Source: a bacterium | GTDB taxonomy: Bacteria; Patescibacteriota; Minisyncoccia; Phycocordibacterales; JAUSHB01 | Length of the DNA: 64,000 nt | Assembly (NCBI GenBank): GCA_030648955.1 | Contig: JAUSHB010000006.1 | Coordinates: 11,866 to 75,865 of the forward strand | Reading direction: 5' to 3' | Part shown: in pieces, positions 52,823 to 53,731 of the stretch | Layout: every line of letters begins with the position of its first letter | How positions within the stretch are numbered: position 1 is the stretch's first letter | The notes under the pieces: model-generated | What the model saw: only the letters and a program-made list of their open reading frames with translations | Databases searched by the model: none | Told to the model about the DNA's origin: nothing | Translations under genes and position numbers: made by a program

Positions 52823-53731
52823 TTATTTCTTGAGCAAGATATTGATTGCCTTTGTGATGATGGGGAGAATATCATCATAGATGTTGAGATCGAGAATATC
52901 CGCGAGGCGAAACCATCGTGCGTCATCAAGTCCGCCAGACTTCTTTAACGTAAGGTCAGAAAATGGAGTCTCGGTGAGAAAATAAACAACGTGTTTTCTA
53001 ATTTTTCCCTTTTCTGGGTCAGAGGCGATATATTCGTTCTCGCCAAGTTTTTCTTTTATAGTTATATTGATACCAAGCTCCTCAAATGTTTCTTTGACAA
53101 CGCCCACTTCTTCTGTATCCCCGGCTTCAATATGCCCCTTTGAAAGGGTCCAATGTCCGAATATGTCATGCACCAATGCAAGATACACTTCGTCCTTATC
53201 TTTCGCGTAAACAACTGTACCACACAACTTTTCCACAGGAAGCTTTGAGAGGTCGATGGGCGCACCAAGAGTCCTTTTTTTGCGCGGAGCATCATCCTTG
53301 CCAGGTTCACCCATTTCTTTATATACAGCTCCGAGAACTCCGTTTACAAACTTTCCACTATTCTCACCACCAAATGTCTTAGCAAGCTCAATCGCTTCAT
53401 TGATAGCAACTTTTGCAGGAACTTCCGCTTTGTCGACAAACAAAAGCTCATAGAGCCCGATACGTAAAATATTGCGATCAACAATAGAGATTTTTTCTAT
53501 CGGCCAATCAGGAGCCGCTTTGGCAAGTATCGTATCGAGCGTTTCACGTTTCTTCAATACACTCTCAACAAGGGACTTCATAAAAGACGTATCTCCCATG
53601 CCAGGAGCAAATTCCTCTGCATTACGAAGTAGAATTTCGTCTATAGTCCCCTCGGAAGCGACTTGACCACCAAAATCCCATTCAAAGAGTGTCTGCATTA
53701 CGACCGACCGCGAGAGATGTCTGTTTGCCAT
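52823..53731 (-). CDS. nusB: NusB-Nudix fusion protein (N-terminal transcription antitermination factor NusB, C-terminal Nudix hydrolase)
   Basis: N-terminus ...[28 protein letters not shown] (NusB core). C-terminus [23 protein letters not shown] (Nudix box with Lys for Arg). Confidence 0.8.
   Translation of the reverse strand: [302 protein letters not shown]

Follow-up and report, generated by a model that had tools for sequence, protein, structure and literature searches.

We analyzed a 64,000-nucleotide (64-kb) stretch of DNA, here called the window, from a bacterium of the Patescibacteriota (contig JAUSHB010000006.1). One of its minus-strand genes, nusB::nudix, is predicted to encode a bona fide NusB joined to a Nudix-fold domain. 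Comparison of the protein with its homologues indicates that selection on the Nudix domain protects a nucleotide/polyphosphate pocket and not, consistently, the catalytic machinery. For the lineage-wide role of the domain we propose that it recognizes an adenine-nucleotide 5'-polyphosphate group and that hydrolysis is optional, and we give this proposal an even chance of being right. The gene and the parts of its protein (lengths in amino acids, aa) are the following, with the evidence for each in brackets.

52823..53731, minus strand: nusB::nudix fusion gene including its stop codon, 302 aa (list of open reading frames (ORFs), Pfam NusB and NUDIX, more than 240 full-length homologues)
53312..53731, minus strand: all-helical NusB domain, residues 1-140 (PF01029, TIGR01951, PDB matches, AlphaFold2 (AF2) and Foldseek)
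53237..53311, minus strand: flexible linker, residues 141-165 (model confidence per residue (pLDDT), conservation and length statistics)
52826..53236, minus strand: Nudix-fold domain of the Ap4A-hydrolase/NUDT2/MutT1 branch, residues 166-302 (PF00293, PDB and Foldseek matches)
53069..53137, minus strand: Nudix box, residues 199-221 (direct reading, column statistics)

Read directly from the sequence, the ORF is unbroken from its ATG start to its TAA stop. The initial annotation, made from the letters of the window alone, had recognized an N-terminal NusB and a C-terminal Nudix box and had proposed a domain search to confirm them. Both identifications held. Pfam placed NusB (PF01029) at residues 7-138 (E 5.9e-36, 124.2 bits, cut-off 23.1) and NUDIX (PF00293) at residues 181-284 (E 3.1e-13, 50.3 bits, cut-off 21.1), each well above its gathering score, and the two peptides quoted in that annotation lie at residues 107-134 and 199-221. 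An AF2 model of the fusion protein, built from 38 homologues, has two confident domains, a helical one at residues 4-140 and an alpha/beta Nudix fold at 166-301. Its predicted TM score (pTM) is 0.48, and a fixed packing of the NusB and Nudix domains against each other is not predicted. Within the 64-kb window there is neither a second NusB-like ORF nor a further copy of this Nudix domain.

The first 140 residues score as NusB above the cut-off of the NCBIfam nusB equivalog, TIGR01951 (127.7 bits vs. 88.35). Among PDB sequences they matched the NusB proteins of T. maritima, Aquifex, and E. coli (E 4e-21 to 1e-12), on which the predicted fold also superposes. The AF2 model gives this half seven helices between residues 4 and 140, with pLDDT mostly 74-92, and in Foldseek it reached target-normalized TM scores of 0.82-0.87 to 1tzv, 3r2d, and 3r2c, the last of which is the NusB-NusE-boxA complex. 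The hallmark blocks of NusB are present: an Arg-rich N-terminus (MANRHLSR), the motif DRNILR, and a block of 23 residues. These conserved signature blocks lend indirect support to binding of S10 (NusE) and boxA RNA, and to antitermination, by the fusion. Unlike NusB alone, the fusion continues past its NusB half through a flexible linker into a Nudix domain of ~140 aa at the C-terminus. The linker opens with an invariant GEP (G141/E142/P143), followed by a nearly invariant GK and then by a variable, mildly basic stretch. Residues 143-158 have pLDDT below 50 in the AF2 model, and across 240 fusions the linker measures 10-41 aa with a mean net charge of +0.9.

The architecture is widespread. In a database of 5.8 billion sequences the best 120 matches were all about 300 aa long, had both Pfam domains and were 65-95% identical to the window protein. 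They come from Parcubacteria, Paceibacterota, Taylor- and Yonathbacteria, and their source names read only "transcription antitermination factor NusB" or "N utilization substance protein B". A relative was found in at least 595 species-representative genomes, which disposes of the possibility, raised in the initial annotation, that the fusion is restricted to one genome. The best 80 of these genome matches are all full-length fusions with 54-70% identity, from Kaiser-, Nomura-, Zambryski-, Giovannoni-, and Vogelbacteria and other Paceibacterota. According to the NCBI taxonomy, all named sources belong to the Parcubacteria group of Patescibacteria (class Paceibacteria). The phylogenetic distribution, which the same annotation had proposed to check, is thus that of a fusion widespread in Parcubacteria.

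A search with the Nudix half alone against 1.84 billion representatives at 50% identity returned 172 clusters at E<=1e-10, of which 150 were listed; these included 36 full-length and 17 partial NusB-Nudix fusions, with identities in the Nudix half down to ~30%. A profile built from the 15 fusions that diverge most then recovered 120 further distinct fusions (Paceibacter, Moranbacteria, and others), again of about 300 aa with both domains and again named only "NusB". In total, more than 240 distinct full-length fusions were examined, and the fusion was the sole form among the best-scoring relatives recovered. The chance that a frameshift or assembly error joined two genes, which had been named as a possible refutation, is practically nil: an ORF unbroken in the same way is present in more than 240 independent assemblies (NCBI, ENA, JGI, Logan), all 120 best and all 120 divergent-profile matches have the same length and both domains, and the linker opens with the invariant GEP. 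The literature searched contained nothing relevant on a NusB-Nudix architecture, on Patescibacteria NusB or on a Parcubacteria Nudix protein, in agreement with the first impression that the fusion was uncharacterized. The architecture is abundant in databases yet unannotated as such and unstudied.

The Nudix half has its closest PDB sequence matches (phmmer) in NUDT2 (3u53) and in 4ilq, 1kt9, 1vc8, 9cxx, and 3i7u, with E values of 3e-6 to 2e-5. The best of these relatives are human NUDT2, Chlamydia CT771, and the C. elegans hydrolase of diadenosine tetraphosphate (Ap4A); further ones are Thermus Ndx1, which hydrolyzes diadenosine hexaphosphate (Ap6A), mycobacterial MutT1/Rv2985, and the Aquifex Ap4A hydrolase. 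In the fold search many Nudix structures were matched at a Foldseek probability of 1.00. The Aquifex Ap4A hydrolase 3i7u ranked first (target TM score 0.86, root-mean-square deviation 2.4 A), Ndx1 reached 0.84, the Nudix domain of the regulator NrtR came third, and MutT1 and the C. elegans and human Ap4A hydrolases were also found. A W-T-x-[SP]-K-G motif is common to the fusion and to these Ap4A/Ap6A hydrolases (NUDT2, the C. elegans enzyme, aq_158, Ndx1, CT771, and the N-terminal domain of MutT1). Its sequence, its fold, and its pocket place the Nudix half in the Ap4A-hydrolase/NUDT2/MutT1 branch, from which it descends. The known ligands of this subfamily are diadenosine polyphosphates (ApnA), (8-oxo-)nucleoside triphosphates (NTPs) and ppp-RNA. 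Human NUDT2 hydrolyzes Ap4A and also removes 5' phosphates from triphosphorylated RNA (PPP-RNA; PMC8616924). Among the substrates suggested in the initial annotation, Ap4A and an RNA 5' end fit this branch, given that NUDT2 trims 5'-PPP-RNA, but nothing specific was found for or against ppGpp.

In the human Ap4A hydrolase, His37, Lys42, Tyr82, and Lys89 contact the P1 phosphate, and Tyr82, Phe128, and Glu130 contact the adenine (PMC4734340). In the phmmer alignments, H193, K198, Y234, K246, Y285, and D287 of the window protein align to human His37, Lys42, Tyr82, Lys89, Phe128, and Glu130, so that the fusion matches equivalents of both the P1-phosphate- and the adenine-binding residues of Ap4A hydrolases. 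These positions are strongly conserved. K198, Y234, K246, Y285, and W194 are retained in 32-37 of 37 clusters of distant fusions, and the pocket residues are retained at ~100% in three other fusion samples (121, 82, and 120 sequences). The H193 position is occupied by H, Y, F, K, or R, and W273 is retained as W194 is. The Nudix half also has conserved family-specific blocks that catalysis does not explain, namely a 16-residue block, ..TKA, and the C-terminal helix.

The Nudix box is a different matter. Compared with the consensus GX5EX7REUXEEXGU, the window copy departs at E7 (D205), R15 (K213), and U17 (T215) and retains G199, E214, E217, E218, G220, and I221, so that five box positions (D205, K213, E214, E217, E218) still carry an acidic or basic residue. 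E214, at box position 16, shares its column with E58 of NUDT2, a metal-coordinating Glu whose change to Ala inactivates that enzyme (PMC8616924). Among 121 close homologues, position 214 is E in only 57 and otherwise V, I, A, K, S, or G, and position 217 is E or D in 117. Over the four fusion samples the E214-equivalent Glu was retained in 57/121, 39/82, 8/37, and 80/120. Orthologues in the same genomic slot include eroded ones, such as P0221 with QK for EE and P0195 and P0214 with E20 changed to K; P0134, P0141, and P0240 are further cases.

Free-standing members of the same Nudix subfamily behave otherwise. Compared as 50%-identity clusters, the complete set E7, R15, E16, E19, and E20 was present in 5 of 37 fused clusters vs. 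26 of 32 free-standing ones (Fisher p=1.1e-8), and E16 alone in 8 of 37 vs. 26 of 32 (p=8e-7). Seven short representatives (P0127, P0128, P0132, P0137, P0158, P0174, and P0177) were dropped from a stricter free-standing set as probable fusion fragments, because they have the fusion-type VHD.FG.WTLSKG signature and lie on short contigs. The contrast became stronger with their removal, E16 being kept in 23 of the 24 remaining relatives. With the catalytic glutamates unconserved and the pocket near-invariant, the tethered pyrophosphatase activity of the initial annotation is not supported in the form given there.

The third active-site Glu of this branch (E103 in the C. elegans enzyme, in "SHEH") falls in the column of G267 of the window protein. 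Gly occupies this column in 32 of 37 distant fusions, and the alignment of 38 close relatives shows no variation at G266/G267; free-standing relatives mostly have Glu there or in the column before. Measured against the three catalytic glutamates of the C. elegans hydrolase (E52, which corresponds to human E58, and E56 and E103), the window protein has two, E214 and E218, and lacks the third. In the work of Abdelghany et al. in J Biol Chem (2003), E56Q reportedly lowered the kcat of that hydrolase ~1e5-fold, E52Q ~1e3-fold, and E103Q ~30-fold. Unlike the Ap4A hydrolases, the Nudix half of the fusion thus combines attachment to NusB with a variable E58 equivalent and a Gly for the third Glu.

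We counted keep/lose changes by Fitch parsimony, as minimum numbers, on a neighbour-joining tree of 240 fusions. In the box, position 16 required at least 34 changes, position 19 required 22, position 7 required 18, position 15 required 15, and position 20 required 6; in the pocket, W194, K198, Y234, Y285, and K246 required 0-5 each and D287 required 8. These counts indicate that catalytic and metal residues have been eroded repeatedly and independently across the fusions, with the pocket near-invariant. The mean pairwise identity is 0.55 for the Nudix half, 0.63 for the NusB half, and 0.47 for the linker. Purifying selection on the Nudix half is therefore strong overall, and this half is no decaying appendage. 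Because the pocket is near-invariant and the catalytic glutamates are not conserved, the conserved role is more likely to be binding than hydrolysis.

The mechanism that we propose from this starts with a ligand. The Nudix domain would bind Ap4A, ATP, or a similar dinucleoside polyphosphate or nucleotide in free form; alternatively, the ligand would be the pppA- or Np4A-type 5' end of a nascent transcript held at boxA by NusB-S10. Ligand binding would be linked to whether the antitermination/RNase III-processing complex assembles, stays intact, or is recycled, and hydrolysis would be an extra retained in some lineages. The window copy may be such a case and keep a slow hydrolysis, since all five of its box positions are still acidic or basic, although the third Glu is missing. 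A more specific version can be formulated, although it is rather speculative and we consider it improbable as a whole: a non- or weakly catalytic reader sits in the Parcubacterial rRNA antitermination complex, binds the pppA/Np4A-capped 5' end of the leader or the alarmone Ap4A, and gates or stabilizes the NusB-S10-boxA-RNA polymerase loop. If so, this reader would do the job that SuhB has in E. coli, and nucleotide or stress status would have a direct link to rRNA elongation and to RNase III processing during transcription.

Several observations weigh against a role in binding. The residue mapping comes from alignments of sequences that are 22-26% identical. In the one with the C. elegans enzyme, Y234 is displaced by one column and D287 falls opposite E123; the match of D287 to human Glu130 required the NUDT2 alignment to be extended two residues past its end. 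A basic surface for general RNA binding was considered for the Nudix half and found unsupported, as this half is acidic (net charge -7). Since AF2 shows no fixed contact between the domains, no allosteric route from one to the other is visible. The metal ligand E218 is kept in 121/121, 79/82, and 119/120 fusion sequences. All five box residues occur in conservative form in the window protein and in 56 of 121 and 74 of 120 fusions, and hydrolysis may accordingly matter in many lineages. The invariant D269/D270 of the close clade could stand in for the missing acids. Finally, an active enzyme would conserve its pocket too, and the pocket alone cannot separate binding from catalysis. For this reason the argument for binding rests on the contrast between pocket and catalytic residues, since conservation of the pocket by itself does not discriminate.

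In the rival reading, that of the initial annotation, the Nudix half is a working pyrophosphohydrolase, brought by NusB to the nascent pre-rRNA leader. Such an enzyme would convert a 5'-ppp or an Np4A/NAD-type cap to 5'-p, or would destroy Ap4A or oxidized NTPs near RNA polymerase. In the decapping version, RNase III cuts the leader-trailer helix, and the leader bound by NusB/S10 is decapped, leading to 5'-to-3' decay and recycling of Nus factors. The window protein keeps D205, K213, E214, E217, and E218; E218 and E217 (as E or D) are near-invariant and about half of the family retains all five residues; the closest characterized relative, NUDT2, dephosphorylates PPP-RNA and Ap4A; and the RNase III gene lies immediately downstream in 80 of 82 loci. 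An active enzyme does not, however, agree with orthologues in the same slot that have lost from one to several essential acids, nor with the fate of the box-16 Glu, which inactivates NUDT2 when changed to Ala and yet is missing from 40-78% of fusions, with at least 34 flips on the tree. The third Glu is Gly in nearly all fusions, including the window copy, and this erosion is not seen in free-standing relatives. We regard an active enzyme as a genuine possibility but an unfavoured one; it could hold for the lineages with intact boxes.

At the other extreme, the Nudix fold might be a purely structural or protein-interaction subunit of a Parcubacterial antitermination complex that contacts RNA polymerase, NusA/NusG, S10, or RNase III, its pocket being irrelevant or re-used. 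SuhB, an enzyme fold inside the E. coli rRNA antitermination complex, is a precedent (PMC6614797, PMC6614801), and the Nudix half is conserved overall, family-specific blocks included, with dispensable catalytic residues. We nevertheless judge this unlikely, for the best-conserved residues are the nucleotide-binding positions of Ap4A hydrolases and not a new surface patch, and the metal ligand E218 is almost invariant. It is very unlikely that the protein is a neutral "Rosetta-stone" fusion, made in a Parcubacterial ancestor with an adjacent housekeeping Ap4A hydrolase that goes on with, or is gradually giving up, its old task and is functionally unlinked to NusB. The flexible linker and the lack of predicted domain packing do fit independent domains, gene fusions are common in reduced genomes, and the window holds a second fusion, of an alpha/beta-hydrolase and a family-2 glycosyltransferase (GT2), at 55748-57238. 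Against neutrality, the same length and context recur across hundreds of species while the Nudix half falls to ~30% identity, and this half is almost as constrained as NusB (0.55 vs. 0.63). Moreover, a housekeeping enzyme would retain its catalytic residues, like the free-standing relatives, and a decaying enzyme would lose its pocket too.

Known proteins offer partial parallels to the proposed nucleotide-recognizing Nudix domain on NusB. NrtR, like the fusion, has an ancestral Nudix enzyme on a nucleic-acid-binding transcription factor and shows a mosaic of intact and perturbed Nudix signatures; NrtR members with a perturbed signature bind ADP-ribose without hydrolysis, and members with an intact one are active (PMC2330246). 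Its Nudix domain serves as the module that binds the effector, ADP-ribose, and a signature like that of the fusions is what revealed NrtR to be a regulator of Nudix origin. It differs in having an N-terminal, ADPRase-like Nudix domain and a winged-helix DNA-binding domain, whereas the fusion has a C-terminal, Ap4A-hydrolase-like Nudix domain and an RNA/S10-binding NusB. Their targets also differ, NrtR acting by repression at operators and the fusion being directed at elongation/antitermination. The fusion is an analogue of NrtR and not a member of that family. A conceptual precedent is SuhB, an inositol monophosphatase that serves in E. coli as an enzyme-fold structural subunit stabilizing NusB/E-boxA on RNA polymerase; it differs from the Nudix domain of the fusion in having an unrelated fold and being a separate polypeptide. 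RsmB/Sun resembles the fusion in that a NusB-like domain is joined to an rRNA enzyme, a 16S rRNA 5-methylcytosine (m5C) methyltransferase, and is to our knowledge the only well-known fusion of a NusB fold to an enzyme domain acting on rRNA. An identity with RsmB was considered and rejected: RsmB models scored 20-65 bits against cut-offs of 269-540 (65 vs. 319), matched the NusB half only, and the protein has no methyltransferase domain; its N-terminal domain is a true NusB and not the paralogue found in RsmB.

The Nudix subfamily also occurs in other architectures. It is fused to a DnaA-C helix-turn-helix (HTH) plus sigma-70 region 4 in P0187, to a calcineurin-like metallophosphoesterase in P0228, to shikimate kinase in P0237, and to an ASCH domain in P0217. 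P0235, of 577 aa, has a weak cold-shock-domain match below the cut-off (18.4 bits vs. 27), followed by NusB and Nudix. Such cases suggest that this Nudix domain has been recruited recurrently onto proteins of nucleic-acid binding or nucleotide metabolism. Two free-standing relatives with a canonical box were seen in their loci: in L084 (5001-5453) the neighbours are an integrase, a DNA methylase, and a gene resembling phage replication genes, and in L085 (5001-5456) they are SIR2, PLD, and large helicase genes, as is typical of defence islands. The neighbourhoods of the free-standing relatives are unrelated to that of the fusion and look like mobile elements or defence islands.

The minus-strand order around the fusion gene in the window is RNase HII, two small ORFs, rpmF, nusB::nudix, rnc, and smc. 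The neighbouring features are these.

54183-54158 and 54158-54131, minus strand: terminator-like hairpin, then promoter-like site, just upstream of rpmF (consensus scan)
53884..54123, minus strand: rpmF (ribosomal protein L32), 152 nt upstream of the fusion (Pfam Ribosomal_L32p)
52022..52801, minus strand: rnc (RNase III), 21 nt downstream of the fusion (Pfam Ribonuclease_3 and dsrm)
49753..52011, minus strand: smc, a short form of ~750 aa with the likely start MQLKRLEVGG ~10 nt past the rnc stop (ORF translation)

This order is conserved. On the same strand, rpmF lies upstream in 80 of 82 related loci and rnc downstream in 80 of 82, with a median gap of ~23 nt; an SMC homologue follows in 69 of 82, and RNase HII precedes in 56 of 82. 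The same order was found in L001, the locus of a 66%-identical homologue, and in the distant L083 (P0162, with a degenerate Nudix box). Both have a Pfam SMC_N match, and SMC homologues in the related loci measure 721-754 aa. Between rpmF and rnc on the minus strand, the consensus scan found a single terminator-like match, a weak one of 6 bp inside coding sequence. A transcription unit rpmF-nusB::nudix-rnc-smc that starts upstream of rpmF is possible, on weak evidence. The location between rpmF and rnc is unlike those of nusB elsewhere, which adjoins ribH in E. coli and lies in the accBC/folD neighbourhood in Firmicutes. The E. coli antitermination complex of which NusB is part links the 5' and 3' ends of rRNA and stimulates RNase III cleavage during transcription (bioRxiv 10.64898/2026.03.17.712431), which makes a functional tie between the fusion and RNase III plausible. 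The window also encodes rpoB, rpoC, TrmD, ClpP, RNase R, and DnaE.

A boxA-like GTTCTTT was found no more than 50 nt upstream of the fusion ATG in 17 of 82 loci (L003-L082), mostly 7-38 nt away, where the remainder of these loci predicts 0.66 (Poisson p ~1e-18). The variant GCTCTTT precedes the fusion gene in 6 more loci, and the window has ATTCTTT at 53758-53764 on the minus strand, 27-33 nt upstream of the gene. By analogy, the element could be a NusB/S10 site for translational autoregulation, of the kind described for E. coli suhB (PMC5725501). Should the Nudix domain act as a reader in the antitermination complex, this element may add autoregulation to it. No rRNA genes for a comparison of boxA were found in the window (Rfam) or in 85 fetched loci (scan for primer sites), and over the whole 64 kb Rfam gave no family at gathering score (no tRNA, rRNA, or riboswitch).

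Three further features of the region were noted. The RNase III of the window has an in-frame insertion of 22-24 aa at about residues 37-60, KRSDLPAPQSHLPVHATQTGAPRQ, directly before the catalytic NERLEFLGDA signature. It lies at ~52620-52695 on the minus strand, has no counterpart in the orthologues of L001 and L083, and coincides with a local peak in GC content of 0.62 in a surrounding region of 0.30-0.50. Between RNase HII and rpmF, the minus-strand ORFs 54193-54555 (120 aa) and 54675-55112 (145 aa) had no Pfam match at E<=0.01. In L001 the slot just upstream of rpmF has an ORF of similar size, also without a Pfam match; in many bacteria this slot holds yceD/DUF177. The minus-strand ORF 55748-57238 (496 aa), an N-terminal alpha/beta-hydrolase joined to a C-terminal GT2, shares ~35 nt with the start of the RNase HII gene.

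NusB is a universal and minimal (~140 aa) subunit of the machinery that makes rRNA. In a major uncultivated lineage, the Parcubacteria/Paceibacteria, whose genomes are very small and under strong reductive pressure, NusB has carried an additional, predicted nucleotide-binding domain throughout the lineage's history, and retention of the domain across the lineage implies a modified antitermination complex. The component folds themselves are well known; the lineage-wide accessory domain on NusB is what would surprise a specialist in transcription or in the candidate phyla radiation (CPR). The result would also correct thousands of database entries whose name at present is just "NusB". Because intact and eroded catalytic sites form a natural series within the family, whether the domain is an enzyme or a sensor is directly testable. 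The finding suggests a previously undescribed direct link from a nucleotide-polyphosphate ligand, or from an RNA 5' end, to the transcription and maturation of rRNA.

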